A stretch of DNA of 64,000 nt from Amphiscolops sp. MND2022 (lineage: Eukaryota), in the NCBI GenBank assembly GCA_964187785.1, contig OZ076409.1, positions 4,032,001-4,096,000 on the forward strand. The letters run 5' to 3'. Within the stretch, counting starts at the first letter, position 1. Every line of letters starts with the position of its first letter. Positions 1-59,324 of the stretch are shown in pieces. Below the pieces are notes generated by a model. It was given only the letters and a program-made list of their open reading frames with translations. It did no database searches and was not told where the DNA came from. The position numbers and the translations under genes are program-made.

Positions 1-21
1 GCTACCTTCCAATGTATCCGA

Positions 22-5953: not shown

Positions 5954-7662
5954 CAACATGCCCCTACTTCCAGGGGTATTGCCACTGTAAGTCACAACGA
6001 CCATCAGTCTACGCTTCAGAACTTTTACAAACTGTTAGCCCTTGCAAACCGAGATAATATTATTTTATATTGATACGGACCGTAAGTACATATTCCTACT
6101 CAAGACAAACTATCACGATTAAATTTTGTCAACTAATATGCCGATCCTATACATTTGTAGTTTTAATAGATTTCGCAATGTAAACGTACATTTACCATTT
6201 ACACACTAGTCATGAGTCATGTACATATATATGCATGCTTATGCAATGTAAACCAGAATAACTTGATGATTGGATTATGAAGCAATATGTAAAAATATTT
6301 GCATGCGGATACAAATGCAACTATATAGATCAAAGTAAATGCGTTTAAACTGTCTTCCGCGCTAGTCGACTTGAACGCGCAGTCCGCCATTCAATTAACC
6401 AATCAGCGTTGAGCTTTTCTTATCTCATTCATTCATTTGCTAGCCATTACGGTCGAATCTTGTATTACGGACCACCAGTCCACTCTGTGTATTTATTTAC
6501 TTTAGCGTGCTTACATGCAAATAGACATAACTGAAGTGTCATAGTATTGATATTTAGACTTGAAAGGCGTGCCGCCTTAACTCCCCCTTCTCCGTTTTCC
6601 TTTTAATGACATTAAGGAAAGTGCTAATTATAGAATGAAATCACCATGACGTAGAGATAATATGATTCCCCAGGGTTGAGCTACCCAGATCTAGTGCTAT
6701 TTTTAGTCTTGGTAACTTGACGTCACAATGACGTTGAGTCTCTGATGCTATTTTTATATAATGATCTCTGATATTTTGAGCGTCATGGCCCCAAAAGTAT
6801 ATATACGAGGATCGTGAGGCAAGCGGGACATTATTCTACATACCTTGCTACAACCTCTCCAATTGAATGAACACAATTATCAATTCGGAACTATTGCTGT
6901 GACTTTAGAACAGAATACTATTGGAAATCATTGTGTAGTTAATTACTGTTTTGAACATTAACTTTGTTTTGAAATACCTTGTTTTGAAACTTGACAAGTT
7001 CGTTGTTGTAACAAACTGAACAATTCATTATTGTTCAAACAAGATTTTCCTCAATGCCATCCACTAGAAAACAAAAGGCGAAAGAAAGGCGTTCTAGACA
7101 AGTCGACTTGATGTCTGATACAGAAAATCTAGATATAATGTTGGGCTTTTACTCAAGAAATGAACTGGAAAGCAATTCAATTGATAGAAATGATGATATC
7201 GACCATGAGTCTGATAGGACTAGACAAGACGTAGCCCAAAATAGTAAGGATTTTAGATCACTCCTCAATTCAAATAGTAGAGAAAACAGTGAATCAACTA
7301 TAGAGACCATCAGGATATTAATTTAGAGATTTCCAAACAAATGGACGGATTTAGGAAGGAATTAAAATTACCTAATAAATTAAAAATAATAATGGATACC
7401 ATTAATTCCGTGATTAGTGAAAAGGTCCTTCTTGATATACGCAACACCATGGTAAACCAACATCCTAGGTTTCGGGGAGAAGTGGACCACCGGTCTAGTA
7501 GGCTAAGCAGGACCGCCGAAGAGGAAAATATTGGAAATGCATGGAAAACCAACTCAAAACCAATTTTAGTCAATAGTAGTCAGCGTAACTACTTTCGGGA
7601 GGACTCAGACGCTTCCTTACTAAGTGACAATGGTAATGAACCAATAACTATTGGTCACGACA
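5927..7662 (+). repeat. 3' LTR of E1 (~1736 bp, inferred), containing the gag N-terminus
   Basis: Termini TGTCGCA...CACGACA (TGTCG/CGACA inverted); preceded by purine tract; contains frameshifted ORF 7054-7662 (MPSTRKQKAKERRSR...GHD) at the position gag occupies in the E2 LTR; partner LTR not in window. Confidence 0.75.
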
Positions 7663-7861
7663 TTGCGAATTGATTGTAAAGTCGCAAAGCGTTGTGCTGA
7701 TATCATAACTCATGTTAATCAATATCATTAGATAAAACAGTTTGAAGGGGTGATCTTTGGCCCTAGTGCAACGTACTTGCAAAATGATTGGAAACGTCAA
7801 TTTGAATTTTGAAAACATTCGAATAAAGAACACTAAGCTTTTTTTCGGAAACAAAGGTTCA

Positions 7862-8030
7862 AACAGAAACAATCAGAGATGTATGAGTTACATTGGATGC
7901 GACGAAGTCATTCAAATTGGAAGTCAATGTTGAGCCATCGAACAATACTTCAACGTATCGAGAAATTATCGAGATCCGCTCGTGGAATCCAAGACAGCGA
8001 TTTTCCGAAGAAAGTCAGAGTTACTTAATC
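7862..8030 (+). repeat. Dispersed repeat, second copy at ~26134-26300
   Basis: Shared ACAGAA.CAATCAGA...CGAAGTCATT...TTGGAAGTCAATGTTGAG.CATCGAA...GATCC.CTC. Confidence 0.7.
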
Positions 8031-8875
8031 CAAGAAACTGTTACTTAGAAGAAAGCTTTATTACTTTATCTTTCCATTTTTCATCACCCGCTTTCAAACT
8101 AAATTTTAACCTGAATCGATTGAACGAAAAATTCTATCTTTTATGTCAAATCGGCGGTAATAATTGATTCTAATGATATAACTATGATAAAAGACAATCG
8201 TCTGAAAGCTTCAGTTATCCTAAACCACCGCCTATTTGTTTTGTTTTTGTCATATGACAAAAATTATGTTCCGGCTGGTTACGTTTTGGCTGTGGCGAAT
8301 TTCGAAAAAAAAATGATGGTGTGATCAACGTTGTATCAATTAGTCAGTCAATACAGACACAGTAATACCCTTACTGTTTCAATTCTTTTAGTAGCTCTGA
8401 ATCGACAATGCTCGGTATTGAAATACTTCTTTATTTACCAAAAATTCGGAAGGGAAAGATTCTCTTCTTAGTTGTCTTGCGTATTACGATAGCGCGTATT
8501 GAATACTTTTCGTTTTTGAAATATAAATACAAAATAATCCAAAACAATTATTCAGCTGAAAATTTTCGGAAGAAGTGAAAACTATTGGTGAAACCTTTCG
8601 AAAACGTGTTCGTTGACAGTCAGGAATTAGTTTTTGTGACATATTTCATTCAGTACAGCCCCTAGCTAAAAATTAGCTGCCAAAACTATATTAACATATT
8701 ACATATAATGGGGGAAGAAAATCATAATCTGTTTTGCGTTTTTTTTGTTTCCAAGTTCTACCAAATCTCCACGTTCACCATTTTCACTTGACTATATTAC
8801 ATATTTGACTATTTTAGTTACTTGACTATTTCAGTTAATAGTGCTGCCAAATCTTCATTTTTTTAACTCTTAACC

Positions 8876-10396
8876 TGTCGCATCCATCAAGATGCGATGG
8901 TTCCGTGGTGCAACTTTGAAGAGGAACGGACGATAGACTCATTTCAACAAACTCTCCAAAACTCTGATGAACCCGTTTTATATGATGTCTTAAAACTCAA
9001 TGTTGTTTAGTCTCGAAAGTCATGTAAATATGATATTTATAAGATGGTTGTTGTGAATGGACCTTCATCATAGTGCTAACATACCTTCATTGCTTCATTG
9101 GGAACCCTTGTTTTAATCATACAATGAGTTATCTCATTATCTAATCATATATTCTAAAGGTCCTAATGCATCTAAATTCGTCATCAGATAGTAATCTACT
9201 CCTTAGCATAGTACAATTATGCGGTACTATGCGAATCGAAGTGTGACGTATACTCGTCATTATGCGTTTTTACTAGTATCATTATGCGGCATTATACGTT
9301 TCAAGGTGTAACGAGTATGCGGCATTATACGTTTTCCATAAAAACATTATACGGCATCCTGCGGAACTAGTAGTGACGCATACTCGTCATTATGCGTTTC
9401 TCGCAGGACTTGTTAAATGAATCCAGCACGTGTTATAATTCTATCTAGAAGTCAATTCAATTACAAATGAAGGCCATTTTAAGAGATTCCCAGGGTTCAT
9501 TAGTTTCTTTTCCCAATCATACTTTTATGATGTCATGTAGATGTGCTATTTTTATAATATAACGTCATTGGACGTAATTCTATTTTTGTCTCGACTTCAT
9601 ACAATGACTCCCATAAAAAGGAGTGTCATGATTTTCGGATTTTGTTCTGAGTTTTCAATCAGAGAGATTCATTAAGAATCCAACCCTCATCAAGTGCAGT
9701 TACTTTCTCAAATAACTGTAAAACTTTGATTTCGTCACTGCAAAACTTCAACTTTGCTTCTCTTTTGGGATACAAGATTAATTCAAATTCTTCTCCAAAA
9801 GCCAGAAAACATTTTCACCTGAGGCAACATGGGAAATAAGAGAAGCCGCAGGTCTAGAAGACTTGAGACACCGTCCCTAGACAGAGAAGTAGAGGTAACA
9901 CAAATAGAAACCCCTAAAACAGGTAATGAAGCTTTAATTGATCTTAGTAATGTTGCCCAAGGGAATTTAGGTGAAAATAGCTCCGAAAAACAGTTAACTG
10001 AACCTAGTCAAATAAGTAATGAGATGCAAGTTTGGACCTAAATCATGGAACAAAAGAACAACGATAGGATTGAAAAGATGAGAGAAGAAAAGGAAAACAA
10101 ACTTGGGGCGATTCTAAAGGAAATAAAGTCCAATAAAAGTGCATCCACAGTAACTAATCCTAGGTCGGATATAAACGAAATGCGAGAAAATCAACCATCG
10201 GGATCCAAATTGAGTAAATCTATAGGAGTTCATGCATCCAATAACGAAAACTCTGATTCCGAGAACGACGACTATCCTCTTAGAGCATCTAAAATGAAGG
10301 ACTTGAAACATCCTGCTAAGCCCTTCTTTGAAACTGAAACAGACTTAGATCAAACAATACTCTCAAATGGAGAGTCTGAACAAGAGGATTATCACA
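8876..10396 (+). repeat. E2 5' LTR
   Basis: Direct repeat of 23291-24811, same length, roughly 25 substitutions counted by eye (~98% identity). Confidence 0.97.
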
Positions 10397-10410
10397 TGGT
10401 GACAGGAGCC
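10397..10410 (+). promoter_or_regulatory. Primer-binding site TGGTGACAGGAGCC
   Basis: TGG (complement of tRNA CCA) immediately after the LTR-terminal CA; priming tRNA not assigned (resembles Leu-type TGGTGTCAGGAG with one mismatch). Confidence 0.8.
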
Positions 10411-11495
10411 AACCGACAACTCCATAGACAGAGCTCACAAAAGCTAAATGATACAATTGGATCCCATGCACACCAAAATACAACAAACTCAATAACACAA
10501 CCACTTGATCCAGTTAATCAAATCGCTCTTGCAATAGAGTAATTGGCCAACAAAAACTCTCCCCAATCACTTTTTCACCCCAAAAATACACTCACCTTCA
10601 ATGGGAATAGTGAGAAAAACGAGAAATTTGAATATTTTGAGGACTTTTTCCATACAACATTACGAATGCAACCAAACTTAACAGAGGGAATGAAAAATAA
10701 CCATTTCCACGCCCATCTGAGAGGTTTGGCACTTGAAACCTTCAAAAACATACAAAGAACTCCCACCACGACGTTGGAGGACATTTTAAAAGTCTTTCGC
10801 CGAAAATATGTAAAACCAGAGTCCAGTGCATCTGCTAAACATAGATTCAACAGACACTTTTTCGACCCAGAAAGCCAAAAACTTCCGGACTTCTTAGAAG
10901 AACTCCAAGAAAGTGCTGAAAAAGCGTTCGGGGACAATGCCCACCAAATGATAGAGAACCTACTCTATGCCAAAATGCCTCCCCACCTCAAAAAGTCCAT
11001 TAACCAAGCTTATCTTGAGAATGGCACTTACGATCAAATTGTCAAACACCTTGAAAAAGAAATGGAACTTAACGGCCTAGAAGCAGACGACACTCTCGTC
11101 AAAACTCAAATGACCGTTACTAAAAAAGAACAAAATACCGAAAAAACCAACAAAAAACAAACGGACAAAACCAAAAAACAAACCCCAAAAACAGTACCTG
11201 ATAAAACCCTCAAAAACGACCAATGCCGTTACTGCAAGGAGACAGGCCACATGATGACTGACTGTCCCAAATTAGCCAAACGGCGCAAACTCGAGGAAGA
11301 TCCGGAAGCCGAAAAATGTCAAAATTGCAACACCCCAGGACATGATGAAGAAAACTGTTACTTCGGAGCCAACATGGAAAATCGTCCAACCAAATGGAAC
11401 CTCACAGAAGCCCAGAAAAAAGTCATTGAAAACTACAAACATGCCAAAAAACCTATTAAACCAAAAATGGAACATCAACAATCCTCTTCGAAGGA

Positions 11496-11502
11496 TTTAA
11501 AC
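11496..11502 (+). promoter_or_regulatory. -1 ribosomal frameshift heptamer T TTA AAC at the gag/pol junction
   Basis: X XXY YYZ in gag phase just before the gag TAG; the -1 frame is open from here into ORF 11571-12548. Confidence 0.8.
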
Positions 11503-14500
11503 TAGAAACGCCACGCCTTTACACAAAATCATCACAAAAACCAAACTCAATTGATGACTGGCAGCATCAGTTGAGCCCAAAACCTACAAAAACATCAGCC
11601 TGTGAAGCCGACTCAATAACAGAAAATATACAACAACTAACTCTGGAAACTCAACCTGAAGACTTATACGAACTCTTACACGATGCACCAGACAACTACT
11701 TTCCTCAACAATCCAACAACCCCGAAACCGACCCAAACTCAGAAATCCAACACACAACAAAACACCACGTAACAATAAAAACGTCTTACAATAATGAGAA
11801 ACAACCTGTTCTAATTGAAGACCTCAGAGAACATATACAATTTGATAAGGAACGAAACTTATCATATCTCCCAATTTCAACCTCTTTAACATTGAAGCAA
11901 AAACGCCACATGTACTACATTCCGATGGCCTTCGAAAAACTCACGCTTGATGGTCTCATTGATACTGGAGCTCTCACAAGTTCAATCTCAGAACAAGACC
12001 TCAAGAAAATCAAGTTGCTCGCCAATGAGGCAATAGAAGAAACTGGTCCCCCACCGAACTTCCAAGTTATGGTGGCAAATGGACAACTTGAAGTCCCCAT
12101 CCGTACGGTACTACTAGAATTTGAAGTGGCTGACTTCATGTTAAAAGAAGACTTCATCATCATGAAAAATCTACCGACCCCACTAATCGGATTGTGTTTC
12201 CTCCGGAGAAATAACGCAATTTTCGATGTCACACAGGGTATCCTAACCTTCCCCTATCTATCAATGCAACTTAAACCAGAAACACAAACATCAATACGGC
12301 AAGCAACACCATTATTTGCTGAAAATACCTACACCTTACAACCAGGCGAAACACTCGCCACCGCAAGCAGAATGCCCCATTTGATGGATCATAATGCCAC
12401 CGGCATAGTCACCCCATCGCAACAATATGAAAACACGATAGCATTTTCATCACTGCATCGCTCAGTACTGTCAACAACAATGCTATTGGCTATCAAATCA
12501 TCAACTTCTCTGAACTACCATACACCATTACAATGGACACCCATTTAGCAGATTTCAAGATTTTAACACCAGAACAAATCAAACATATACAACCAGTGGA
12601 CCCTGCATTGTTATCGTTTATTCTTCAACGCGAAGAAACAACAGAAGTCACCATAAACGAACTTCTTAAAGTACCACACCAAAACCCCGAACAGGAGACC
12701 TACTGGTTCCCTACTCCTGATGAACCAGGCGACCCTACAACATATACCCCAATTCAGCAACGCATCTAACAAGAGCTTCTTGAACTACAAACTGAACCCA
12801 AATGATAACGACTCCTCAAGGAAAACATTTCCTTCAAACTTCGACTGGTCTGATACAACACTCGGCCCAGAAGAACGACAAGAAATTGAGGAAATTCTCA
12901 TCGAATTTCACGACATCTTTGCCAGACATCGTTCCGATATCGGAATAAACCGCGAATTCAAAGTAAAATTAACGCCGAATGACGACAGACCTGCTTACAG
13001 CCAAAGTCTGCCAACTCCTATCAATCTCAAGGATGATATCACAGTAGAACTCGCACTTCTACACAAGTACGGTATCATTACAACTTTACCTTTTTCCAAA
13101 TACGCCAGCCCAATTTTTGCACAGCGCAAACCCAACGGTCGTCTTAGACTTTTAGTAGACCTCAGAAAGATTAACAACCTCATCACTGAAGATTACACCA
13201 ATAATAATCACCCGGTAAGCACTTTATCAGATGCAGCACAACATATGGCAGGGAAAAAACTGTTCTGCAAGTTGGATTGCTCACAGGCTTATCACTGCCT
13301 CCAGATGGCAGATTACCAATCCATTCAAATGCTAGCCTTCAACTTTGCCAGTAGAACATTTGCTTATCGTCGTCTTGCTCAAGGCCTCCCTAGATCACTT
13401 TCTGCATTTTCAAGCTTTATGAGAGAGTACCTAGATCGAGAAATTAAAGCTGACCAATGTGCCCAATATGTCGATGACATTGGCATAGCGGCAAACGACA
13501 CAAAACAACTATGCATAAATATCAAAACTGTCTTTGAATGCATTCGCAATGCAGGACTAAAACTCTTTCATGTCAAAATGTCACTTTGGAGTCAAACAAG
13601 TCGACTTCCTAGGGCGTACAATAACACCAGACGGAGTCGCCCCACAAGCGGACAAAGTCACCGATTTTCTATCAAAACTCCGATTCCCCAAGTCAAAGAA
13701 GGCGTTACAAAGGTATATTGGATTTCTAAATTATTATCGAAACTACATACCACGCCTTTCAGAGCGGCTTTCTCCGTTCTTCAAACTCCTCAAAGAAACC
13801 TCCAAATTCTACGTACCCACAAACTTGGTGGAAGCCTTCACCAACCTCAACAAACTTCTGGAAAATTCCTGTCGATTAGCATTAAAACAACCACTGAAAA
13901 ATAGACAACTTATAGTCATGTCCGACGCACTTTTCACAGCAGCAGGATATGCTATCATGATCGAAGACGACCCGAACCAAAAACTTCAATCTAAACGAAA
14001 AACGTATGCAACCATTGCATTTGGTTCAAAAACCTTTAACCCAACACAAAGTTAAATGTCAATATATGCGAAAGAATTCCTTTCCATATATTTCGCATTT
14101 GTAGAGTTTGGACACCTTATGTGGGGAAGTACTTTCCCAGTCATAGTCTTCACTGACAATCGATCAGTAACACGCTTTTTTCAAGCAAAAATGATTCCAC
14201 CAGCACTGTGGAATGCGTGCGATTACGTCTTACAATATAATTTCGTAATTGCTCATGTTGCTGGATCAATGAACACAGCAGTTGACTTCTTATCTAGAAC
14301 AGAAGCTGACCCAACTGAAAAACTAGAAATGACAATCCGCAATGACATTCACACCAAAGCTATTGAGGTGAATATCCAATCAACCGGAATTGTAGACGAA
14401 GAGCAAATTTACATTCTACCCGAAGATGAAATTGATGAAAATCAACTTTGGGAAGAGAAACAAAATATTCGAAACCAAGCTCAAACAGAAACACACAATG

Positions 14501-16365
14501 AACCAGAAACTGACGTCTCTAAACTACAACAATTTCACAAACCCACATCGGGGTTGATCTCAATCTCATCAGGATACTTTAAGGATAATGCAAGAATTCG
14601 CCTCGAGCAGAACAACGACATCGTCCTTAGAAATCTGAGAGCAAAACTTGAAGGAAACCCATTTGATGAAAACGAATTGGCGTCCGATTATAGATACCAA
14701 CACTACTTACAAAACATAACCCGAATAGAAATAAAACAGGAAGTCCTTACACGAAAATACTACACTGACACAGGAACCATATCTCACTACCAAATTCTCT
14801 TACCGATCCAACTTCTAGAAGAATTTCTTCAAGCCCTACATGGTCACAATTCAAACCACCCAGGAATCACCAAGATGATTCAAGAAGCCCGACAAAAATA
14901 CTACTACCCATGTATGGCTAAATACATCAAAAAATGGGTCAGTAACTGCCAAGTGTGTATCCAAACAAAACGCATTAACAATGATCTTCTCAGAACTGAA
15001 CTCCTAAATTGCCCAGAATGGGATCTTGGTCCAGAAGACATTCTGCAAATGGATATTTTGCCAAACCTCCCCCCAAGCGGAGGCTATGATCATATCATCA
15101 CGGCGATTGACGTCTTCTCAAAATATTTGTTTGCCTACCCTGTAACTCGCATCAATGCAACAACGGTGTCAAGAGTTATCATGGACATACTATGCAAGCA
15201 CACTTACCTTCCTACAACGATAATCACAGATTTAGGCACTCAATTCAACGCGCAAATAACGCACGAAGTTGCAGCAGTGCTAGGAATTGAACTTAAACAC
15301 GCAACAATGAAACATGCTCAAACGATAGGACTCCTTGAGAGAACCCATGCTTCAGCCAAAACACACCTGAAAGCTGCAACAGGCGAATTCAGGAATAACT
15401 GGCATAAGTACCTACCGTTGGTAGTCCTAAACCACAATACAACGTACCATGCATCACTCGGTTGCGAGCCTTCACGAGTTTCTCATCGTAGAATACCACA
15501 TAGTATCCTAGACTACAAACTCGGATATAACCCTAACCCACGATACCAACCACAGACTGATGTGGCTGAAGAAATCCAAAAACGTATGAAAATCCTTCTA
15601 GATCAAACTAAGAAGAACATCATGCAATCTTATCTCAAATACAAAGCCTACTTTGACAGGAAAGCGAAAACAGCTCCTCTCGAAACGACGGACTATTGTT
15701 ACATTCTTAACCCAAAAGCTGATAATCAAGCGACAAAAATACCATTCCGCGAATTCAGATGGTGTGGACCAAATAAAGTGGAAAAAGTACTCCCTAACAA
15801 TAACTATTTTGTCCGGAGACTTGGCACTAACAAAAGCCAACTACTACACAGGATCCGTCTGAGGAAATATACTCCACAAGCCCCATTAGCCGATATTTTC
15901 GTTCGTGAAACTGATTGGCAAAAAGATGATCAAACGCCTATAGCAAAGGATGATCTATACGCCCAATCATGGAACACAAATTTCGGAACGAACCCGTTTG
16001 AAGACGGTCCGTCAGAGTTTTCTCAGGAAACTGAAGATGCTGAATATGCTCCAATTCAAATACCTGATGATAACCACCCTCCCTCCCCTGGATCTTCAAA
16101 AAATGGTGCGGGCAGCCCAGTGGAACAGACCACTGAACCCAAAAGAGAAAACAATGAAATTTCACGAGAAACCCATGATGATGAAATAGAAAACCCACAA
16201 AAAACCCAAAATGATAAAAATAATACATCCCAAATTGATACCCAAAAAACCCCAGAAAACCCTGAAAACACCCCATTGCAATAAGAACCTATAAATACCC
16301 GTGGTGAAAAGTATAACCTACGACCCAATCCCAACCCAAACTACTCTGACTCATATAGATACTAA
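11496..16365 (+). pseudogene. pol: E2 pol: aspartic protease, RT, RNase H, integrase; several frameshifts and stops
   Basis: LIDTGA; RLLVDLR, KLDCSQAY, YVDD; SDA..AAGY, TDNRS; H..HPG..CQVC, IDVFSKY, TDLGTQF, LERTH; tail ends YNLRPNPNPNYSDSYRY* after one stop at 16282. Confidence 0.96.
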
Positions 16366-16549
16366 AAAGAAATACAGAAGAAATTGTTCTCTCATCTTTC
16401 ATCTCGATTCACTTTTCAGAGAACCTTTTTCGAATTTCTTCCGATTATAATCAAACAAATGGCCTAATAAAGAAGCATTAACAAACAACAGAATAAACTA
16501 AACAAAATTGAGACACTCGATCACAAAGTCATCATAGTATATGATCCAA

Positions 16550-19500
16550 CTAGTTTTTCTTGCTTTTACAAGAATTGCTCTTTACTTTAGCAGAAACTGA
16601 ATCAGTACGTGCTTCAGCACATTGTGAGACTTCTAGACTAACTCTGCTAAGAGTTGGATCTGGAGTAGGAGTACTATTTGCACTACTACGGCGGCTCACA
16701 CTTGGGGTAGTACTTCTAGAACTTACAGGAGGTCTTTCAATACGAAGGACAGATTTCCGATAACAAGTTTCGAGTTTGCCCAAAAGAGTAGATCGCTTCT
16801 GTCCATTTCCTTTGAGAAAGTTCCGAATGGAGAATTTCTTGTCGGTCAATAGATCAGTTCCTCGGCCAAGGAGTCGAAAAACACGAGAGATTGATTTAGG
16901 GTCTCGGTATAAACTTGAAAGTTGCGGAATTGTCTGGTATGATGCCTGTAGACTCCACAAACAGGTTTGGATAGCTTCAATTCCATTCTCTAAACTGGTA
17001 AGAGGGACGATGAAAGGACTTGGTATATTGATTAAAGGGGATAAACACAAACAGGAGTATCTGTACATTTGATACAATTCGGGACGACATTGAATCTCGT
17101 AATGAGACGATACGTAATGCACCCAATCCTCGTAATCAGGGACAGGACAATCACGAAGTTTTGTAACGAAGGATCGATACTGGCTTGTAGCTTTTGTTTT
17201 ATCACTAGCTGAGATACACCCTCTGGCAACGAAATAGGATGCTAACTTTTCAATTGAAGCAGTATATTGCTCCTCCGAACCCTCAAATATGACACTAGGG
17301 TCGAATGATGATAACCCCCTAATCAGGTCAGATTTGATCACTTCGTGACTCAGCAGCAATTTACAAAACGCCTTGCAGAAGGCGATTGATTGATCAACAA
17401 ATTTGCCTGGGCGAGGCATTATACTGGCAACAACAAGATTGTAAAAGTCTTCATTAAGTATAACTTCGCTTGATGTTTTGAAGGGCAGCCCAGTTTGGTC
17501 CAAATCTAAATGAAGATAACCATCCCAATTAGAAATGCTTCGAAGCGTATCATCTGGAAGGAGGTTTTGGAGCTGGCTATATACAAAAACTGCAAACTGG
17601 TTGTATAGCCGAAAACCCCCTTCAACTCCTTGTTTGACTTCGTGGAAGGCCGAGTTATCTGAAACAAAAGGAAAATAGTGACACTTTAAAACGCGTTATG
17701 ATCTCAACCAGCACGCAGAGATAAAATATACGTCAATATACAATTCAATTTGTGACGATCATACGCCATAATACAAATTCAACAATGTGTCTATACGTCA
17801 TTCAGCGGATCTAGGTGTGACGATTATACGTCACTATGCGGAATTGCAAATTGGATTACACGTCATCCAGCGGACCGAGATGTGACAATTGTACGTCACT
17901 ATGCGGAATTGCAAATTGGATTATACGTCATTAAGCAGAATTGCAAATCGGACTAAACGTCATTATGCGGAATTGCAAATCGGACTATACGTCACTGTGC
18001 GGAATTGCAAAGTGGACTATATGGCATCATGCGGAATCCACAGAACGAATATACGTCATTATGCGGAAATCACTGAACGTACTGAAAAGATTAACCGAGC
18101 CAGACGATTTACAGCCACCATACTCTTACAGCTTAAATAGGTGTAAAGAAAAGTACGGAAAGAAAATGGACCATGTTCGTTATGAAAACAGTGGGATTAA
18201 TCGGACCATAGTAAAAAGGGAAATGAAAATTTTACTGGGGACTTGGATGTTGTAGCAAAGACCGTCTCAAGAAAATGAAAATGACTAACAGTGGTCTATT
18301 GTGCATCTGATAATGAAAAGCCGGGCCAGATAAGTGGTGTCTAAGCGAAAACACTCGTCCAAAGTGTTCGGCTGAAACAGAAATGAGAACTATACGAAAA
18401 GAAGGAAGGCTAGTCTACAACAGACAGAAATATAATAACCTCTCTCATGTGAAATCTGTATTCTGGCAGTCTGGCCACTTGATTTAGGTGTTCACGCACC
18501 CGGTCCCAATACTTGGATAAGTCCTCTATGATGATGGACGCTTCGCTCAAAGAATACTCAAGCCGAGTTATACACTAAAATGAAGAAGACCTGTAAAGAT
18601 CAAACTCAAGTGTATTTGTACCGAACACAATATGATATGCTACATACTTTGTGTAGAGTTGGCAAGTTCTGTACCCAGTCTCGATCCAATGCTGTACGTA
18701 GTTTCATTAAAAGGAAATCTAGAATCGTACGAAAATTATGTCGCTCAATGATTTGAGCGGTAGGTAGGGCAAGACTGGATTCAAAATTGGACGGTTCATA
18801 AGTACTGGTAATGAATGACCTTTTTACACCAGGTAAATTAGTCCAGAGACAATCAGCTAATTTTTCATCAAAACCAACTAAGGAAACGCAAGAAGGAGCA
18901 GTATCAAAAAGACTGATGAACGAGGCGAGTAAAGCAAGAATCTTGCGGGGAAGTAACATTCCTCTTGGGGAACTGCCCAGGCACACACGGTGGAGCACGT
19001 TTCCAGACCAGAATGATAAAATGATGAATGAAGTGGTAACAGAGTGTTGGAGTGATAACGAACACAATCCAGAGTCGGAGATCTTGTCAGTACAGTAACT
19101 CATTAGTTCTCTGAACATATGTACCAGGATGGCCTGTTAACACGCACAAAGTAAAAAAGAGCTTACTCAATTAAATGAAAATGCGCGACTAAAGATTAAA
19201 ACACTTCATACAAGTCACAATGCGAAAGCGAATGTCCTCAATTCAATAGTTAAAATAAAATACTAACATAGAGGCGTTGATCGCTCGAATTCTGGGTAGA
19301 CAACACGTTGGAAGAAGTCAGTCTGGATACTTCTCCATAGATCCCAGAAAGGTTGTCTACGTGTCCCCCATTTCTGAGCCCGAACTCTAAAATGGTTATT
19401 TGGAACAAAACCTTCTCAGTAGGACTGGATGCAATGTTTGTAGCAGGGACTGCAGATTGTCCCACTAGAGGATGTCGAGAGTCTAATTGGGGCGCTATTG

Positions 19501-20957
19501 GATAAGTGTCCTTTGCAGCTTTCTTCGCGTTTTGGAGGGCTGTTCCAAGGATCTCTTTACAGTCTTTATCAAACAAAGGCATGCCGGTTATCTCCATACG
19601 GATTCGATGCTCTTTGATTAGGTGTGAGTCAGTCCGATAATGGGAGACCAGTTCCAAGGGTCCTCGACTCATTAGGGATAATTCCACACGACACACCCTA
19701 CACCACCACTTATAGGGAGTTTTATCGGTGTCGAGTGGACCAGTAGCAGAAAATTGCAACACTGGGTGTTTGTTCAACATTCCAACTGTGAGGGAGAATT
19801 AGGTCTCCTTCTCTTACCATAGTGCGTGCTATCCTGATACTGTCTATCGGAACGGACAGCCATTGATGATGAAGGCCCTGATAGTTCCTCCTGACTAGAC
19901 GTAGTGACAATTACAGGGTCCGCTATAACGTCAACGACGGACAAGGATAGAGGTTGACCTAGATTTGCTCCATCTCCTGTAAGTAAGTCTGGTGGGATTC
20001 GCCCCAAGAAATTATTGATGGTCGTTAACTCTCTTCGGGTAATGCTGAACTGAGTATACTCTCCTGGAAAGTCCTGCATTGTCACTTCTTGTTCATTGGA
20101 TACTTGGATCTCCTCCCCCTCTGCCCCAAATATGTCGCCTTGGCTGAGTAACATAGGGTTCTCATGCGAAGCCCTGTCGAAGCCGGTGGGTGAGAGATAT
20201 TGATTAAACTGTGGTGGAGGAGTTTGGGTTACTTGTAGGGGAGGATAAGTCTCTCCCATGACCACTTGTGATCTATTTTCAACGTTGTCTCCGCTGTAAT
20301 TATGATCGAGGCCCACTTGGGAACGGGGCGTGCATTGACTGGCGGAAGCCTCAACTTCAGTCCTTTCTTCCTGCTCGTGATCAGCGGGAAATATCTCACA
20401 TGTGAAGTGTGGAGCAGCAGTCACAACCTTTATCCCTTCATCAATCTGCAAAATAGGGGTGACAGGGGATTCCAAAGAGCCTTGGGGTTGAACTAAATTT
20501 GGAGATGCTACTTCTAACAAAATCAGAGTTTTCTCTGGTGTTTCTGCTGTAGGATTCCTTACTGAAGTGAGTTCAGCTAAAACAATGATCGATTACTTGT
20601 AGAAAAGAGGAATTGATCACGCAAACGAGTTCGTCCTAGATTAACTGAAACCAGACGCGGCAACAGGAAATGAAAAGAACGGATGTCGTTTAAAGTTAGA
20701 AACGGAAACGTTTCAAAAAATCTGACTTTGTTTAGTAATCCATAGCTAGACATTTTCAATTCGTAAGCCTGGCCAGCTTCGAAACCCTACTAAACTCCCT
20801 AAACCAAATCAAGTCTAAACAAGAACATACTGAACTTACTTTGTGTGGATTCCAGGGGTAGATCATCAGCCCAAATTTCATCGCGCTGTAGCTTCAACAG
20901 CTCCTTTCTAGTCAATCGGGTACTAGAAGTCCCAGGCTCTCCTGGTTTAGAGTCCAT
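16550..20957 (-). CDS. Antisense six-exon gene inside E2, ~1080 aa, hAT-transposase-like with C2H2 (BED-like) zinc finger; one 1-nt deletion near 19785
   Basis: Exons 20957-20840, 20576-19268, 19133-18648, 18574-18440, 18371-18290, 17658-16550; donors GTAAGT, GTTAGT, GTATGT, GTTATT, GTTAGT; pyrimidine-rich AG acceptors; phases 1,0,0,0,1 all match; WCRVCRVELSLMSRGPLELVSHYRTDSH. Family assignment is by eye. Confidence 0.8.
17750..18070 (+). repeat. Degenerate ~31-bp tandem array (TATACGTCA.TATGCGGAATTGCAAAT.GGA.) inside the last intron of the antisense gene
   Basis: About ten ACGTCA.TATGCGG-type units, all within predicted intron 17659-18289. Confidence 0.85.
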
Positions 20958-21309
20958 TTCCTATCCAGAAGTTCACTCCCTGAGGGATGATAAACGTTTG
21001 GAAGTATTCAGGAATTTTCCTTGAAGAGGAAGATAATGAAAGAGAAGTAAGACGAGGAGAGAACTAATTCTGTGGAAAATGACAAAAATGACTCAAAAGA
21101 CTATAAACGATAATTGAATTAACGAATAAAGTAAAGCAAGTTATAGGCGTGGCGGTAAAAGAAAGGCAAAAGAGCGAATGAGACAGTTGTGCGCAAATTG
21201 GTAAAGAAATACTCAAATCTGATTGGCTAATTAAATGTCAATCACGTCTGCCAGCGTGATTGATTGATTCATTACAAGGTTAGCCATTAGCTAATTGCAT
21301 GCATAATGT

Positions 21310-21556
21310 AATATGCGGCAATATGCGGATTGCTGGTGAAGAATATGCGGCAGTATGCGGATTGCTGATGAAGAATATGCGGCAGTATGCGGATTGCTGA
21401 TGAAGAATATGCGGCAGTATGCGGATTGCTGATGAAGAATTTGCGGCAGTATGCGGATTGCTGATGAAGAATATGCGGCAGTATGCGGATTGCTGATGAA
21501 GAGTATGCGGCAGTATGCGGATTGCTGATAAAGAATATGCGGTAGTATGCGGATTG
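21310..21556 (+). repeat. 32-bp minisatellite AATATGCGGCAGTATGCGGATTGCTGATGAAG, ~7.7 copies
   Basis: Near-perfect tandem copies between the two divergent accessory genes. Confidence 0.95.
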
Positions 21557-22314
21557 AATAGTGGCGTATACTCGTCACCCTGCGGTTTTCGCTGCATGTA
21601 TTTAATGATATGAATTAATGCAGTTCGTGATTAGAATTGAATACACAATGAGATGTTACGTAATACTCTGGAGAAATTAAAGCATTCTCATGAAAAACAA
21701 GTGTGAAATTGTTGATGTTTTGGTATACGGCATTGACACCCTGTTGAAAATCATCAACCTGCTAGCATTTTTAAATGCGGACTGAGCTTAATGCATGATT
21801 TCCCTTAAAATTAATATTTGATTTTGGGAGAGGTATTTAACGTAATACAAGTTTCATAAGCCTTTTCACCATTTTATAAATTAGTCATGTAAAACTATAT
21901 GAATTTCTTTTTCTTTCTTCTTTCATTCGAGGAAATATATTCATGAAATCGTGTTAAGGTTGATTGCTTTGATCTTAGGCTAAATTTTGTTTATATATCA
22001 TTTGTTTGCCAAGGAACTTACGAAAACTCTAGTGATAAGTGACGATTTAACGAAGTGTTAAAGCGAAACACCTTTTATGGAAATTGTTTATAACCTATTG
22101 TAAATGAGTCTCATGATACAATCACCGACAAAACCCTTATAAAGGAAAATGGAGATTTTGAAAAGCATGACGCTCAAATTCTGCGCCGGTTTTTGTCAAA
22201 AACAAGAGGAAGAAGAAAATCAATCACCATATCGTCTTTGCAATTTCATAAATCAGTTGCCTTCTAAATTCTTTGAAAATCTGAAATACTCAGTGGTTTC
22301 TCTGCAAATCTAAA

Positions 22315-23334
22315 ATGGAAAAACTCCAATTTAATACTGATGTAAATTCGCTATACTCCCCTATATCCCCTGATGTGGTGGATATTTCGAGCGAGTCAGA
22401 AAATAGCTTCTCAATGGCTCCCGGAGATATTGCCCAGCTTGACGAAAGATTTCGAATTAATACAACTGGGAGTAACCTGATGTCGGCATTCATGGGCTCA
22501 ACATTGTTTTCGTTATATGTGGATCCAGCCACTACAGCAGAACAGAATGAGTCTGTAAGTGCCACAGGGACACAGATACAACAAGACTTGATGGAGTTGT
22601 TAGGGGAACCGCAAGAAGATAGGATGATTTCCCCAAGTTCGTTCATAGATAGTGAGTTTGAAGAAGGGAATTTGTTCCCCTGGACGCTGGGTAATACCCC
22701 TCCTGAAGACACAAACAATTATGGTCGGCCTACCGCCAGGGTTCCCCCTACCCAAAGAGTGAACCCCAGTGCAGGTGGGATATTGCCAAGGCCAGTCCCC
22801 ACTTACCCACCTAACTACAGGCCAGAGACATCTGATTTTCAACACACGCATTCTAGTGAACCCATGGATCAAGACCCACGCAGAGATATAGCTCCGACTC
22901 AAGGTACACTGAATGCAGTGCAAGGATTTAATTTGTCACCTGCGTTCTTCCCCATCCCAATGAAGGAAGCTCCCATTGAGAACCGACAGATCACAGTTCA
23001 TCCAATGGTGCAGTTGGGCTTTCCTTTTTGCGTGACACACAGCACGAATCTCATTCTTATCCCTGCAAGAGAAAGACAAAGCATGAGACTACTGCCAACC
23101 GTCATGTCAAATGTGGCGGGTTACTGCGACATATGTGGTAAATGCTACGATCAGATCGCACTGGAAACGTTGGTTGAGTACCTCATGGCTACTGAATACG
23201 AGGGAGAGAGAGTGAAAGAAAGAGCGATTAGATCAAGAGCATTTATCCATGGATTCGAAGCAGCCCTGTTCCTCTTTAAAAATGCGGGACTGTCGCATCT
23301 ATCAAAATGCGATGGTTCCGTGGTGCAGCTTTGA
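22315..23334 (+). CDS. E2 sense accessory ORF (339 aa, intact) with C-terminal CxxCGK domain; stop 44 nt inside the 3' LTR
   Basis: Uninterrupted ORF; CDICGKCYDQIALETLVEYLMATEYEGERVKERAIRSRAF matches E1 ORF 5201-5953. Confidence 0.8.
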   Translation: MEKLQFNTDVNSLYSPISPDVVDISSESENSFSMAPGDIAQLDERFRINTTGSNLMSAFMGSTLFSLYVDPATTAEQNESVSATGTQIQQDLMELLGEPQEDRMISPSSFIDSEFEEGNLFPWTLGNTPPEDTNNYGRPTARVPPTQRVNPSAGGILPRPVPTYPPNYRPETSDFQHTHSSEPMDQDPRRDIAPTQGTLNAVQGFNLSPAFFPIPMKEAPIENRQITVHPMVQLGFPFCVTHSTNLILIPARERQSMRLLPTVMSNVAGYCDICGKCYDQIALETLVEYLMATEYEGERVKERAIRSRAFIHGFEAALFLFKNAGLSHLSKCDGSVVQL

Positions 23335-24811
23335 AGAGGAACGGACGATAGACTCATTTCAACAAACTCTCTAAAACTCTGATGAACCCGTTTTATATGA
23401 TGTCTTAAAACTCAATGTTGTTTAGTCTCGAAAGTCATGTAAATATGATATTTATAATATGGTTGTTGTGAATGGACCTTCATCATAGTGCTAACATACC
23501 TTCATTGCTTCATTGGGAACCCTTGTTTTAATCATACAATGAGTTATCTCATTATCTAATCATATATTCTAAAGGTCCTAATGCATCTAAATTCGTCATC
23601 AGATAGTAATCTACTCCTTAGCATAGTACAATTATGCGGTACTATGCGGATCGAAGTGTGACGTAAACTCGTCATTATGCGTTTTTACTAGTATCATTAT
23701 GCGGCATTATACGTTTCAAGGTGTAACGAGTATGCGGCATTATACGTTTTCCATAAAAACATTATACGGCATCCTGCGGAACTAGTAGTGACGCATACTC
23801 GTCATTATGCGTTTCTCGCAAGACTTGTTAAATAAATCCAGCACGTGTTATAATGCTATCTAGAAGTCAATTCAATTACAAATGAAGGCCATTTTAAGAG
23901 ATTCCCAGGGTTCATTAGTTTTTTTTCCCAATCATACTTTTATGATGTCATGTAGATGTGCTATTTTTATAATATAACGTCATTGGACGTAATTCTATTT
24001 TTGTCTCGACTTCATACAATGACTCCCATAAAAAGGAGTGTCATGATTTTTGGATTTTGTTCTGAGTTTTCAATCAGAGAGATTCATTAAGAATCCAACC
24101 CTCATCAAGTGCAGTTACTTTCTCAAATAACTGTAAAACTTTGATTTCGTCACTGTAAAACTTCAACTTTGCTTCTCTTTTGGGATACAAGATTAATTCA
24201 AATTCTTCCCCAAAAGCCAGAAAACATTTTCACCTGAGACAACATGGGAAATAAAAGAAGCCGAAGGTCTAGAAGACTTGAGACACCGTCCCCAGACAGA
24301 GAAGTAGAGGTAACACAAATAGAAACCCCTAAAACAGGTAATGAAGCTTTAATTGATCTTAGTAATGTTGCCCAAGGGAATTTAGGTGAAATTAGCTCCG
24401 AAAACCAGTTAACTGAACCTAGTCAAATAAGTAATGAGATGCAAGTTTGGACCCAAATCATGGAACAAAAGAACAACGATAGGATTGAAAAGATGAGAGA
24501 AGAAATGGAAAACAAACTTGAGGCCATTCTAAAGGAAATAAAGTCCAATAAAAGTGCATCCACAGTAACTAATCCTAGGTCGGATATAAACGAAATGCGA
24601 GAAAATCAACCATCGGGATCCAAATCGAGTAAATCTATAGGAGTTCATGCATCCAATAACGAAAACTCTGATTCCGAGAACGACGACTATCCTCTTAGAG
24701 CATCTAAAATGAAGGACTTGAAACATCCTGCTAAGCCCTTCTTTGAAACTGAAACAGACTTAGATCAAACAATACTCTCAAATGGAGAGTCTGTACAAGA
24801 GGATTATCACA
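23291..24811 (+). repeat. E2 3' LTR, containing an intact copy of the gag N-terminus (24244-24811)
   Basis: Direct repeat of 8876-10396, followed by TSD TAACC. Confidence 0.97.
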
Positions 24812-24826
24812 TAACCCTAATAAATT

Positions 24827-24948
24827 CTAGTCACCATGGGGCAGTTGTTAGTGCGTTTGCCTGGCAGACACGAGATTGTGGATTCGAACCCGTGCTGATG
24901 CGTTACATTTTAGCGGAAAGTATCCCGGTGCTTAGCGGGCGTCTTGTT
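24827..24948 (+). mobile_element. tRNA-derived SINE-like repeat, copy 1
   Basis: A-box-like TGGGGCAGTTGT and B-box-like GATTCGAACCC; aligns end to end with 46388-46510. Confidence 0.75.
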
Positions 24949-26496
24949 GTACCTTGGATGTACATTAATGGGTGAAGCAAAGGAAAAACGGAACACATAG
25001 CATATGCTCTGCGATCTAGCTCTTAACGTTTCAAGAATTTGGCAACAATTGCCAATCAAGATAACTCTGAGCATTGCAAGTCAGCTCGTCAGTCCGTCAG
25101 TTTGGTAACTGTTCTTCGAAACAAAACGAACCTTTCACATATCAAAAGATTGAACGAGATGACTGGTAAAAACGTCAAGACTTTTTCTCAAAGGTTCGGA
25201 TTATTCTTTGTTTGAGATTTATTAACGCATTGAGAAGATGATTGAAGGAAAAGTGAAAACTTATCAGTTTCTTGTTTTCAAATATTAGGAACTTGAACCT
25301 TGAATATTTTGTGAAATAATTAAAATACGTGAAAGCTTTGGAAAGTAACACGTGCTTATTTCTTCAGTCTGCATACCAAGTGCAGTTAATACGTATTATT
25401 ACTGAAAAGTTGAATTTCAGCGTTCTAAGTTGTTAGGAATTGTTTGCTGACAATAACCGGTCGTTTTGATATACAAAGATTTTCATGCGTTCTTTTTTCT
25501 TGGTTTGCCTAGTATGCTTCGCCTTTTTGTGAGATACAAAAGTTTTCAAAACGAACTAATAAAACCTTAGAATTTTGTTACTTGTGGAACGTGTTCATGA
25601 GAACTACAGCAGAATTTTACCTGCAAGCTGTAAACGAAATCGAATTCCACCTGAAGTTTACATTGCAGGTTTTCACGTTACAATTTTCTCCACAAATTTA
25701 TACACTCAATTCCCGTTTATCAACCAGGTTGTATATTGGATATCATTTGAAACACAACTATTTTTTCTTGTTTTAACATTTCATTGAAATCGTCGAAAAT
25801 TAACAAACTCCCTGTATCCAATATGGTTGTCTGAGTTCTCAATACATCTTTGGACGGTCATCGGCAGAGCTTGAAATTTTTTTCGGAAAAGTTTTGGTGT
25901 AAGGTCAACAAGGAATAAATAATGGTGGGACGCGATTGCAGCTCTTTTGCTAGGTTTTTCAAAATATGGATATTTTTTCAGTTACTGTTGTGTTGAGACC
26001 AAGAACACAAAACTTTCAATAACGCGTAATACAACAGGTCGAAGGGCTGCATCACAGTTCGAAAAGACATCACTTTGAATTTTCAAAACCTTTGAAAATA
26101 GAACGCTTACCTTTTTTCGAGAATAAATATTCAGACAGAAGCAATCAGAAAAGAATGAGCGTGAGTAACATTGATTGCGTCGAAGTCATTTGAGTTGGAA
26201 GTCAATGTTGAGTCATCGAAATTTAGTTCAGTGGTTCGGGGAATATTCAAGATCCACTCCTGGTAAATCCCAAGCAGCGAACTCTCGAGAAAAAACATAG
26301 TTTATTAGAGTCACTTGATCAATATTACTTTTACTCTAAAGAAAACTTAACTACTGTTATGTTTCGTCTTTTGATTCCCCGCTGAATCATTCCTTCAATA
26401 CGTCCAGAAGATTTGGGAGTTATCCTTAACCACTGTCTATGAACTGTAGTTATGGGATCTTCGGATAAGCAGAGCAAATAGTGCGTGGCTACCCTA

Positions 26497-33800: not shown

Positions 33801-36800
33801 ATTTCATATATTGCATCTTTTGAAAAGTCTAGTTACATTCTGTCTAGTTACATGTTACCTTTCTGCTGGGTTTGTGTCAATTTTAACGAAAACTGGGTTT
33901 TTTCCTCACAAGTAACATCGTGCAAAGTACTCAATTAGCAACTTTGGTTACCATAACATTCGATAGCGAACCCCTGAGCTACTTTTGTTTAGTTCTCGCA
34001 AAGTTTGTGGCTTACACCACGAGCGCTTGCGCTCGTGTAAGTGTTAGGCCTTAAAAATGCCAAAAAGGCAGTTTTTTGCTAAAAATACACACAAAGTCGC
34101 TCTTTTCACATTTAAAACAGTTGCAAAAGTACACAACCAGTTACAAGAGGCTCGTAAAAACACGTGCGAAGGATCGCACAGAACATTTTGAGCAATCGAG
34201 AAATCTTTTCCTACCGAGCTCGGAGATTGTATATAACCCGGGTTGACGGGTCGTATTTTTATCTCGTTTTATCTCCTTTCCCGGGTCAACTGGGAATCAC
34301 GGATAGATTCGTTAGAAACGTAAGCAGCTGTGCTACGTTTCCACCAATGTTGATTGCTCTCGCTCGTTCCCTTGAGAAATGGGAATGGGTAGTACTGAAC
34401 ACTCAGTTCTGCTCTTTGTGTATCTCGTCCTAATCTGGTTAGCACCGACTCCAACACTCGCTCAGACGACTAGGAAAGCTGGAAAACACCAGTTAACACC
34501 GTTTACGGCCTTTTCAAGGCTCCCAAGACCAATAATGAGTGACCTGTTAATGAGACAGTAAAGATTTTTTGCAAGTACCTGTGAGAAAAATTGTGAAAAA
34601 ATCAATCAACACCAATATTTTACAAAAAACACTGTTAAACACCAGGCGTAAAAGTCTCTAAAGACACACACACGCTAAAAAGAACGACAAAAACTGTGGA
34701 TAATTGTCTCTTTCCAGGGTTGGGTCGATCTGGGTGTAACGGCTGCTTGCCCTTATTCTGCGCTTTACAAGCTTTACGCCGCCCTGATCCGTTGCTTAGT
34801 ACTGTGGACGGTTACTAAACAAATCCTGGTTTTCTTGTTTTTAAAGGACTGTATCTTTTGACTGGTGGGTCCGATGTGACCCGTAGGAATCTTCTTCAAT
34901 CCCTCTTGCACTTGTTTGGATCCGCTGTGAGAGTAGCTACTTAGTCGCTCTAACTCTAGCGAAAAGTTGTGAAGATTGAGAAGTTTATCAATTTGTCTCT
35001 TGGTCCTAAGAACAAACTTGACTATGGCTATTCAGTGGAGAAAAATCTCTATCTAAGAATGGTATACATATCGTTTAGAATTCTTCAGTAGTTATAAGTC
35101 GAAATAAGTGAGTGTAAATAAATGACATTTAAAGCATAAATTGAAGTTATTAGCAAATAAACAAACTATGTGGTGGTATTGGCGTGTTGGTTAGGTGGGC
35201 TCTAAAGAATGTTTAGACAAAGTAAATATCGATAATTGCAACAGAGTTACTTTCTAATGTGGTCCAAGGGGTAAAAAGCAATGTTTACATTTTCGGTTCA
35301 ATGACCTTGAATACCACACATGTGAGAGTTAAAGGGGGTTATAATGGGTGACCGACCTTGAAACTTGGCCGGTGTGTCCGTGTTATGTACCTGCGTATGT
35401 GTGTCAAGTTTCAAGTCTCTATAACTAACAGTCTTTGAGAAAACCCATTTGGGGTGGTTAAAGATTTGCAATGTGAGGATTTTCTTCAAATTTTCATCTG
35501 AGTTTCTATGAGTTTAAGTTCTTGTTTCTAAACCAGCATGTTCTGAATCAACTTTCTTTGCCTGCTGATGACTGGCGCCAATACTGGGCGTCAAGCACCA
35601 GAAGCCCAGCTCTTTAAGTTTCCGTAATAAAGGAAAGTACTCTGAGGCGATCCCTTTGTCGTTGCCGTAAAATGGTTGGTGTCCATGTAACGGCAAGTAT
35701 TCACCGTCACTTCCTCCGTCTGTGATGAAGTAGGAACCTACAACATGGGTATTTTCCCGGAACCGGCGCCAATATCCATATGCCCAATTTGCCTCCTATG
35801 GTAAGAAATGTTCCGTCAAAAGGCTTTTTCGCCTCGAATTAGTACTCGCCAGGCTGATCCAGTCTGTAATTGTTATCAGCAACATGATTTACGCTTTGTG
35901 TTCGGAAATACCGCTTAGATAGCCTTTAAAAACTTACACGAAAAGTGCACCAGAGGTGAATTTCTTCAAAGTACAAGAGGTTGCAAAACAGTAGCTCACG
36001 AGTTAAACATTAGACCAAAACAACATCTCGAATTACAACATAAAGAAAAAATGTAGATGGTTGTAGTTCTTATTTTTTTATTGAGCACATAAGAAGTCTT
36101 TTAAGAAGAAAAAAATTCTTAACAGCAAATTCGTCTAAGGTACCAAGTTTACTGACTAGCTAGCTATTTCCAATACCTTTGAGATCTCAGTTAGGTATTC
36201 TTTTCAGATAGAAACCGTTCTTCAGTTAAGATTTTGAATTTCGCCGAGTGGATATGTTCTACAAATTCATCAATGATTACAATTAGTTATAATGACATGC
36301 TAATTATTCAATAGCGACATCAGTATGATAGTTAGATGGGTTACTGATTATATTTCCACAAAGTATTAATTAAGTTATTTTCGAATGTAGTAATCTAGTC
36401 AACTTCAAATAACTACAAATGAAGTGACATATGTCTTTGAAAAATTGGGTGACTTTAAGATATTTGAAAGTTCTTGAGGACATGCATCATGGCGTCACAA
36501 TCAACCGGGAATTTTTGAAAATCAAAATTATGTATCTGCACGTTGGAAGTGTGAAGTTATGAAGTTTTGTTCTAGAAGCGTACCATACTTAAGGAGTGAG
36601 AACAACCTAAGATGATTTGACTTCTTACGTTAGTGACAATTCAAATTGGTGCAACTGTTTCAGTTTCTATTGACTGACAGTTGTGTTCGAGTTTTTGATT
36701 GACAACTTGTTTACTACTATGTGTTAATTTTTCAATTCTACGTATCTGCCATCGGCTTATTTGAAACAAAATGTTGTACATCAACATGAGCTATTCAGAA

Positions 36801-36899
36801 TTTAAAACTTTTCAAGTTGAAGAAAGATTCTACGAAGATGTCAATGAGTTGTGACAAATATTGGCGGGTGTTTGAACCAAAAGTGAAGAAGTTTTGAAA

Positions 36900-58391: not shown

Positions 58392-58415
58392 TTATATTTA
58401 AAAATTATTGGAAAC

Positions 58416-59291: not shown

Positions 59292-59324
59292 TCAATATAG
59301 TTTTATACAATTTTTTGTAAATAA

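Follow-up and report, generated by a model that had tools for sequence, protein, structure and literature searches.

The 64,000-nucleotide stretch of Amphiscolops sp. MND2022 DNA analysed here (contig OZ076409.1, positions 4,032,001 to 4,096,000; hereafter the window) holds two divergent Ty3/gypsy-type long terminal repeat (LTR) retrotransposons, E1 and E2, and each carries an additional sense open reading frame (ORF), termed ORF3. E2 is a complete element of 15.9 kb (8876-24812). Its ORF3 passes through the polypurine tract (PPT), and the stop codon (23332-23334) lies 42-44 nt inside the 3' LTR because this repeat begins at 23291. The ORF3 of E1 stops at 5951-5953, 25-27 nt past the family-type LTR start TGTCGCAGG at 5927; this start was taken from family homology because the 5' LTR of E1 lies outside the window. 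ORF3 is a fourth class of gene beside gag, pol and the antisense block in a large clade of ~16 kb Ty3/gypsy-type elements, and it is almost certainly a genuine protein-coding gene, not a chance ORF.

An earlier note on this DNA had claimed that the two ORF3 proteins align without gaps, that both begin with M..LQF and a Ser-acidic tract, and that both frames terminate within the 3' LTR, and each of these statements was borne out. BLASTP reproduced the ungapped alignment (17/51 identical, E=4e-6), and the Smith-Waterman score of 65, against a shuffle mean of 34.8 (standard deviation 5.2, z=5.8), was reached by 1/2000 shuffles. When clade profiles were built separately from 14 E2-clade and 14 E1-clade sequences, profile-profile comparison gave a probability of 98.2% and E=5.5e-14 over 78 columns, comprising the C-terminal domain and the LTR-encoded tail. 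The M..LQF start and an invariant Ser-Ser in acidic context are common to an 18-sequence ORF3 alignment, E1 and E2 both showing them. The tail of E1 is in a different frame from that of most of the family, with the shift at the G-run of the PPT, and several ORF3 copies have alternative-frame tails because the length of this G-run varies. In the alternative frame (the 5915-5953 region of E1) the tail reads ..CRRLPP.. in copies L022, L023 and L047 and ..CRRRSQRC in the E1 of the window, the family form being ..VSQAAACDGN...

The 1.07-Gb host genome is rich in copies of the gene. The E2 ORF3 query gave 5184 first-look candidates and the E1 query 4451; stop-free frames were found in 99 of the 121 best-scored matches of the former (58-95% identity, open frames of ~345 aa) and in 131 of the 150 of the latter (45-60% identity), fractions that are biased upwards as only the best candidates were scored. 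The ratio of nonsynonymous to synonymous change (dN/dS, NG86) was 0.13-0.26 in the six ORF3 pairs with dS of 0.10-1.21 (L033/L042, 0.13; L037/L038, 0.14; L045/L047, 0.14; L002/L010, 0.18; L001/L010, 0.22; L001/L002, 0.26), well away from the value near 1 that had been named beforehand as telling against the proposal of a gene. Three near-identical pairs (dS 0.05-0.06, including L023/L028 and L025/L052) are uninformative and were set aside, and nearly all other cross-subfamily pairs had saturated dS with dN of 0.23-0.63. In the three most diverged unsaturated pairs (L033/L042, L037/L038 and L002/L010) dN/dS was 0.06-0.18 for the N-terminal 60 residues, 0.14-0.24 for the middle, 0.04-0.13 for the C-terminal domain and 0.01-0.10 for the tail; closer pairs were noisier, with values up to 0.66 for the 19-codon tail. 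Conserved residues of the tail are encoded by synonymous codons (TGC/TGT, GAT/GAC, GGN, AAC/AAT, TAT/TAC, CAG/CAA), and therefore the tail is selected as protein and not merely as an integrase site. ORF3 is thus under purifying selection over its whole length, even where its codons lie in the PPT and in the first 40-100 nt of U3.

The earlier note's designation of ORF3 as an accessory protein gene of the element accordingly stands, with many divergent copies open and dN/dS far below 1. Its description of two divergent elements was right as to divergent homologues but understated the family, which comprises a large clade with thousands of candidate copies in the host and relatives on two metagenome contigs. 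When 1.84 billion representative proteins were searched with a profile, 453 clusters were returned at E<=1e-3, 223 of them at E<=1e-10; the relatives looked up, from ENA records and one JGI record, have neither a name nor a Pfam domain, and the overall plan is preserved in distant members. The two metagenome contigs, which are short and lie outside the host genome, encode relatives 32-37% identical with the same motifs and tail; they were retrieved with alignment A4, whereas a metagenome scan with the single protein P0147 gave no match. No relatives were found in IMG/VR. Longer or fused forms numbered 0 among 6087 candidates, which is weak evidence, and no similarity was seen between ORF3 and the gag, pol or antisense proteins of its own element.

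The carrier E2 is well delimited. Its two LTRs, with TG..CA ends, share 98.3% identity, and a 5-bp target duplication, TAACC, borders the element (8871-8875 and 24813-24817). In both clades the gag start codon and ~570-600 nt of gag lie within the LTR (569 nt in E2), so that the primer-binding site (PBS)-like sequence falls within the gag frame and the 3' LTR bears an orphan gag-start ORF (24244-24975). A tandem or truncated second element was considered as an explanation of the 1.5-kb terminal repeats and rejected, because the target duplication lies outside the full repeats and a copy with identical LTRs is arranged in the same way. In that copy, from an E1-clade subfamily and with 100% LTR identity, the gag (577 aa) and pol (1690 aa) frames are unbroken, and antisense ORFs of 385, 191 and 684 aa are present together with ORF3; the E2-type layout is repeated in two other full copies. 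ORF3 has the orientation of gag-pol, is situated between pol and the 3' LTR of a bounded element, and is conserved in most copies rather than transduced once, and it qualifies as a sense additional ORF. The earlier note had pointed to the intactness of E2 ORF3 beside a broken gag-pol; gag-pol is indeed split, but the intact frame is no evidence, because at least 5 breaks in ~6.4 kb of gag-pol lead one to expect ~0.8 in 1 kb. No env gene was found in the carrier elements. The features of both elements are collected in Table 1.

Table 1. Features of elements E1 and E2 in the window.
Feature	Position	Strand	Remarks
ORF3 of E2	22315-23334	+	339 aa + stop; accessory gene under study
SIM-like motif DVVDISSESEN of E2 ORF3	22375-22407	+	codons 21-31; hydrophobic core, two near-invariant Ser, acidic run
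Folded part of E2 ORF3	23116-23274	+	codons 268-320; CxxC (CxxCGK) knuckle + two helices (278-292, 300-318); AlphaFold2 pLDDT 87-94
PPT-like run AAAAATGCGGGAC	23278-23290	+	within ORF3 coding sequence, abuts 3' LTR; read from sequence
LTR-encoded ORF3 tail (..LSHLSKCDGSVVQL*)	23291-23334	+	conserved Cys332; evidence: synonymous variation, tail dN/dS, profile-profile coverage
ORF3 of E1	5201-5953	+	250 aa; homologue of E2 ORF3
TATA/CArG-like motif CCTTATAA(A)GG	22134-22145	+	form CCTTATAAGG; ~-190; conserved in both clades
T-rich/CGCG motif TTTCCCGCG	22179-22194	+	E2F-like; ~-130; conserved in both clades
A(A/T)TCAG(T/C)	22250-22261	+	Inr-like or 3' splice-site-like; ~-65; conserved in both clades
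E2 5' LTR	8876-10397	+	1522 bp; gag start codon (9829) inside; PBS-like TGGTGACAGG follows at 10398
E2 gag-pol	9829-16284	+	CCHC knuckle, aspartic protease, reverse transcriptase, RNase H, integrase; broken into at least 6 frames
E2 antisense block	16550-20592	-	ORFs 16550-17695 (381 aa), 18606-19136, 19250-19798, 19774-20592
E2 3' LTR	23291-24812	+	holds ORF3 end + second copy of gag start
E1 pol, 3' part	1-2423	+	RNase H, integrase; element enters window within pol
E1 remnant of large antisense gene	2610-3925	-	three frames; compared by eye; rest of block missing in this copy

AlphaFold2 models of E2 ORF3 (60 sequences) and of an E1-clade ORF3 (44 sequences) agree in showing a low-confidence body and one confident C-terminal domain, a cysteine knuckle followed by a helical hairpin (residues 270-318 in E2), with a predicted local distance difference test (pLDDT) score of 91-96 for the same fold in the E1-clade model. 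The structure prediction that had been proposed for the conserved region thus yields a confident knuckle and hairpin twice over. Near-invariant residues are C271, C274, G275, T293, E298, A309 and G313, together with C332 in the LTR-encoded tail. The isoelectric point (pI) is 4.5-4.7, and Asp and Glu number 13 (E1) and 9 (E2) in the first 60 residues. ORF3 is an acidic and, judging from the models, probably mostly disordered protein with a small CxxC-knuckle/helical-hairpin domain and a conserved Cys-Asp-Gly tail at its end.

Similarity searches place ORF3 in no known family. Pfam gave no family at E<=1 save a 12-bit chance match, and no envelope, zinc-finger or RNA-binding family; a profile search of PDB sequences gave nothing at E<=1, Foldseek searches of BFVD and PDB with the models, which are mostly of low confidence, gave no match at E<=1e-3, and the ESM Atlas no usable match. 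The protein has no transmembrane-like segment (maximum 19-residue Kyte-Doolittle mean 0.75 in E1 and 1.28 in E2) and its N-terminus is hydrophilic; together with the lack of a Pfam envelope match, this agrees with the earlier judgement that it is not env. The accompanying suggestion of an acidic region with a possible zinc-binding domain holds in so far as the N-terminal part is acidic and the small domain at the C-terminus has three near-invariant Cys.

The other conserved part of ORF3 lies near its N-terminus. A hydrophobic core, two serines and an acidic run appear there as VVDISSESE in E2 and as IIYISSNES, LVIISSDDEE and LINISSDDTE in distant members; S25 and S26 are invariant across alignments A1 and A5, and the two serines are invariant in A6 too. 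This arrangement matches the consensus of phospho-regulated SUMO-interaction motifs (SIMs), and serves as a lead. The first 80 residues contain a SIM-like pattern in 77/110 full-length-like family proteins, against a mean of 9.2 (maximum 19) in 200 shuffles. A second, similar motif is found further downstream (FIDSEFEE in the E2 clade, DSDIEVI in the E1 clade). In comparison with SIMs of the PIAS, PML and Daxx type, ORF3 shares the four-residue hydrophobic core (VVDI, VIDI, IIYI, LINI), the Ser-Ser pair and the acidic run; unlike a homologous domain, the likeness is confined to a short linear motif.

The preferred reading, tentative and well short of probable, is that ORF3 serves as an adaptor or regulator in the nucleus, with the Ser-acidic motif as its docking site for SUMO or SUMOylated host factors and the C-terminal domain as the holder of a second partner. 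The N-terminal motif would recognise SUMO itself or SUMOylated chromatin or silencing factors of the host, probably once its serines are phosphorylated. The C-terminal domain would hold a second partner, be it an element protein, nucleic acid or, via a shared zinc, another copy of itself. The outcome would be favoured expression or integration of the element, or blunted SUMO-dependent silencing. Should ORF3 touch SUMO-dependent silencing, it would provide an example of transposon counter-defence in animals.

Several observations weigh against the SUMO-directed adaptor. The SIM regular expression missed 33/110 proteins; the first 20 of these mostly begin at an internal Met or an upstream start, and a few are near-miss variants. 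The SIM assignment follows a short-motif consensus, and acidic Ser-rich tracts may also serve CK2-dependent docking or act as acidic sorting clusters. Near-invariant Cys number three (C271, C274 and C332), one fewer than a standard zinc site, a fourth being present in the E2 clade (CGKC), and the tail is modelled at low confidence in both AlphaFold2 models. In the fold search the helical hairpin matched only generic hairpins (Z<=5.9). Furthermore, in the E1 clade ~14 in-frame codons upstream of the ATG (..KIAKK(L/I)(F/I)L(K/N)R..) look coding-like, with all six Leu codons used, so the true N-terminus or mode of expression of ORF3 may differ from that assumed. A KIAKK-type stretch is also present on a foreign contig (L066), ~40 nt upstream of its ATG, and a stop often precedes the stretch; it hints at a spliced N-terminal extension or exon junction, or at an unrecognised element. 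Two further results weigh neither for nor against: a predicted homodimer of the C-terminal domain with zinc scored 0.00, in a run that left the alignment unused and in which the partner's own fold was uncertain, and a search for a host SUMO with Pfam PF11976 returned ubiquitin and a NEDD8-like ORF only and no unbroken SUMO sequence.

Two other functions are unlikely and deserve weighing. ORF3 might be a Rev- or CERV-like post-transcriptional factor that binds unspliced genomic RNA through its basic second helix (R.RRR.AF) and helps this RNA to be exported from the nucleus or stabilised, the part that CERV plays for Cer1. CERV is described in PMC10309623 as an accessory protein of an animal Ty3/gypsy element needed for export of genomic RNA; in ORF3 itself, helix 2 has 3-4 Arg in the E1 clade, and the coding-like stretch upstream of the ATG with the ..TCAG motif ~65 nt upstream would fit a splice acceptor. 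However, the basic cluster is down to 2-3 Lys or Arg in distant members, Pfam shows no RNA-binding domain, and no convincing splice donor was seen near the gag start in one full copy examined. The CAG is altered in 4/17 aligned upstream regions (CGG twice, AAG and TAG), with the AG kept in three of these four.

The other function, of similarly small likelihood and suggested as a possibility in the earlier note, is that of a transcriptional transactivator resembling foamy virus Tas/Bel1, in which an acidic activation region would join a small DNA- or cofactor-binding domain acting on the LTR or an internal promoter. The acidic N-terminal part and the position of the gene across the PPT and U3 would suit such a protein, and three promoter-like motifs that are conserved when 17 upstream regions from both clades are aligned (Table 1) suggest an internal promoter. 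The names TATA/CArG-like, E2F-like and Inr-like (initiator-like) given to these putative motifs follow consensus sequences. Against this function, searches of Pfam and PDB and fold searches recognised no DNA-binding fold, and the folded part is only ~50 residues long. 

As to expression, a TATA box, TATATAAA (5146-5153), does stand 55 nt upstream of the E1 ATG as the earlier note had reported, but it is specific to the window's E1, the one copy among 45 with a located start to have it at -55. ORF3 is probably expressed either by an internal promoter within the ~1.5 kb that separate it from the antisense block or, through splicing, as a subgenomic RNA.

A more elaborate form of the SUMO-directed adaptor is distinctly improbable. 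Here ORF3 would be a counter-defence factor, a bidirectional internal promoter would drive both it and the three antisense genes, and the protein would dock on SUMOylated silencing or heterochromatin machinery and disable or exploit it. If this were true, the clade would be a 'complex retrovirus-like' animal Ty3/gypsy lineage with four accessory genes.

That ORF3 is a captured or decaying passenger without a role for the element, conserved only through recent amplification, is very improbable. Close copies (89-95% identical) are numerous, and many intact ORFs could therefore be merely young; against this, subfamilies at 45-67% identity retain full-length open frames, saturated dS stands beside dN of 0.23-0.63, and the metagenome relatives keep the motifs and tail. 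The notion that the similarity reflects cis-acting nucleotides (the PPT and the integrase recognition site at the LTR end) and no protein at all draws on the conserved region abutting the PPT and on the LTRs of E1 and E2 both beginning TGTCGCA, but its probability is negligible: third-codon positions vary while amino acids stay, dN/dS is far below 1 over all 1 kb, the N-terminal motifs are ~900 nt from the PPT, and synonymous variation with the segment-wise dN/dS refutes it for the bulk of ORF3.

The antisense block accompanies ORF3 in both clades, and its ORFs are homologous between them (E=6e-11, 2e-5 and 1e-14). Three conserved antisense ORFs lie between pol and ORF3, on the minus strand in E2 and at 4352-8732 (-) in copy L053, and a zinc-finger-like motif, C..C...H.....H, is present close to the C-terminus of the largest. 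For the 381-aa ORF (16553-17695 without its stop codon), 86 of the 108 best-scored genome matches were stop-free (56-94% identity), and at 14 loci found in both match lists it and ORF3 are a few kb apart on opposite strands. Pfam gave no match for the 11 antisense ORFs scanned (thresholds E<=0.001 to 5), and the ESM Atlas gave only chance-level scores (0.81) for the 381-aa protein. The antisense block of one E2-family copy (L055+L056, G000:C3:88192000-88211999) contains a 1315-bp tandem duplication, 99.6% identical, at 11391-14021.

Further features were noted around E2 and elsewhere in the window. A ~135-bp repeat (24818-24951 and 46379-46513, 87% identical) includes a tRNA-like stretch (..GGATTCGAACCC..) and is probably, from its sequence, a tRNA-derived short interspersed nuclear element; E2 is inserted beside one copy of it. 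ARAGORN calls no tRNA, the tRNA scan of the window having found none. A ~300-bp repeat, 70% identical, is present at 7794-8092, ~0.8 kb upstream of the 5' LTR, and at 26067-26383, ~1.25 kb downstream of the 3' LTR. GC skew is strongly positive (up to 0.49) at 36000-46000, a region with minus-strand ORFs of 159-368 aa; six of these were scanned and had no Pfam match. A Maverick/Polinton-like gene set at 57223-60299 comprises a double jelly-roll capsid-like domain (57223-57804, -), an rve integrase (58416-59291, -) and an A32-type packaging ATPase (59325-60299, +).

Extra ORFs in the interval from pol to the 3' LTR form an established class, with plant Retand, Grande and RIRE2 as examples (PMC7264820, PMC11963269). 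The plant elements resemble those studied here in having conserved extra sense and antisense ORFs in a long pol-to-3' LTR region of most copies, tandem repeat arrays in that region (in E2, 32-bp units at 21278-21588), and a function presumed to be regulatory (PMC7264820, PMC11963269). They differ from the present case, in which the host is to all appearance an animal, with a Maverick/Polinton in the same window, the sense ORF3 reads across the PPT as far as U3, and the gag start is likewise found in the LTR. The TRP28 domain of the plant Retand antisense ORF, taken to be Pfam Transposase_28, had no match in the 11 antisense ORFs scanned.

The closest animal counterpart by description is CERV, encoded by the Ty3/gypsy element Cer1 of C. 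elegans. According to PMC10309623 it is a phosphorylation-regulated protein of 517 aa with three folded domains, one of them G-protein-like, and is translated from a spliced mRNA of 5 exons that overlap gag and shares its N-terminus with Gag. Both proteins are accessory, lineage-restricted products of animal gypsy-type elements, and the flexible linkers, Cys-rich loop, helix-hairpin-helix and serine-phosphorylation control reported for CERV are counted as resembling ORF3, the comparison being by description only. In contrast to CERV, ORF3 has 250-345 aa, one folded domain of ~50 residues and a place at the 3' end of its element. A search of the full-text literature, which left host name and Repbase-type libraries aside, turned up no description of the ORF3 family or of this layout in an animal element; additional ORFs as a class are already known, and the ORF3 variant is apparently new.

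Most of the extra genes described in LTR retrotransposons come from plants, fungi and a few animal elements, and hardly any has an established function. ORF3 offers a conserved Ser-acidic docking-type motif, a disordered linker and a ~50-residue Cys/helix domain, with thousands of natural variants. Among retroviruses, 3' accessory genes that overlap U3 include nef of human and simian immunodeficiency viruses (HIV/SIV), bel/bet of foamy viruses and sag of mouse mammary tumour virus (MMTV); foamy viruses add an internal promoter, and human T-cell leukaemia virus type 1 (HTLV-1) an antisense gene. Unlike these genes, with which no sequence or fold similarity was found in Pfam or, using models mostly of low confidence, in BFVD, ORF3 is carried by a Ty3/gypsy element lacking env. 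Like them, it reads across the PPT and stops within U3 of the 3' LTR, the nef- or bel-like placement that the earlier note had recognised. With a sense gene over its own PPT and U3, three antisense genes and the gag start in the LTR, this very abundant clade has a compact retrovirus-like regulatory layout.

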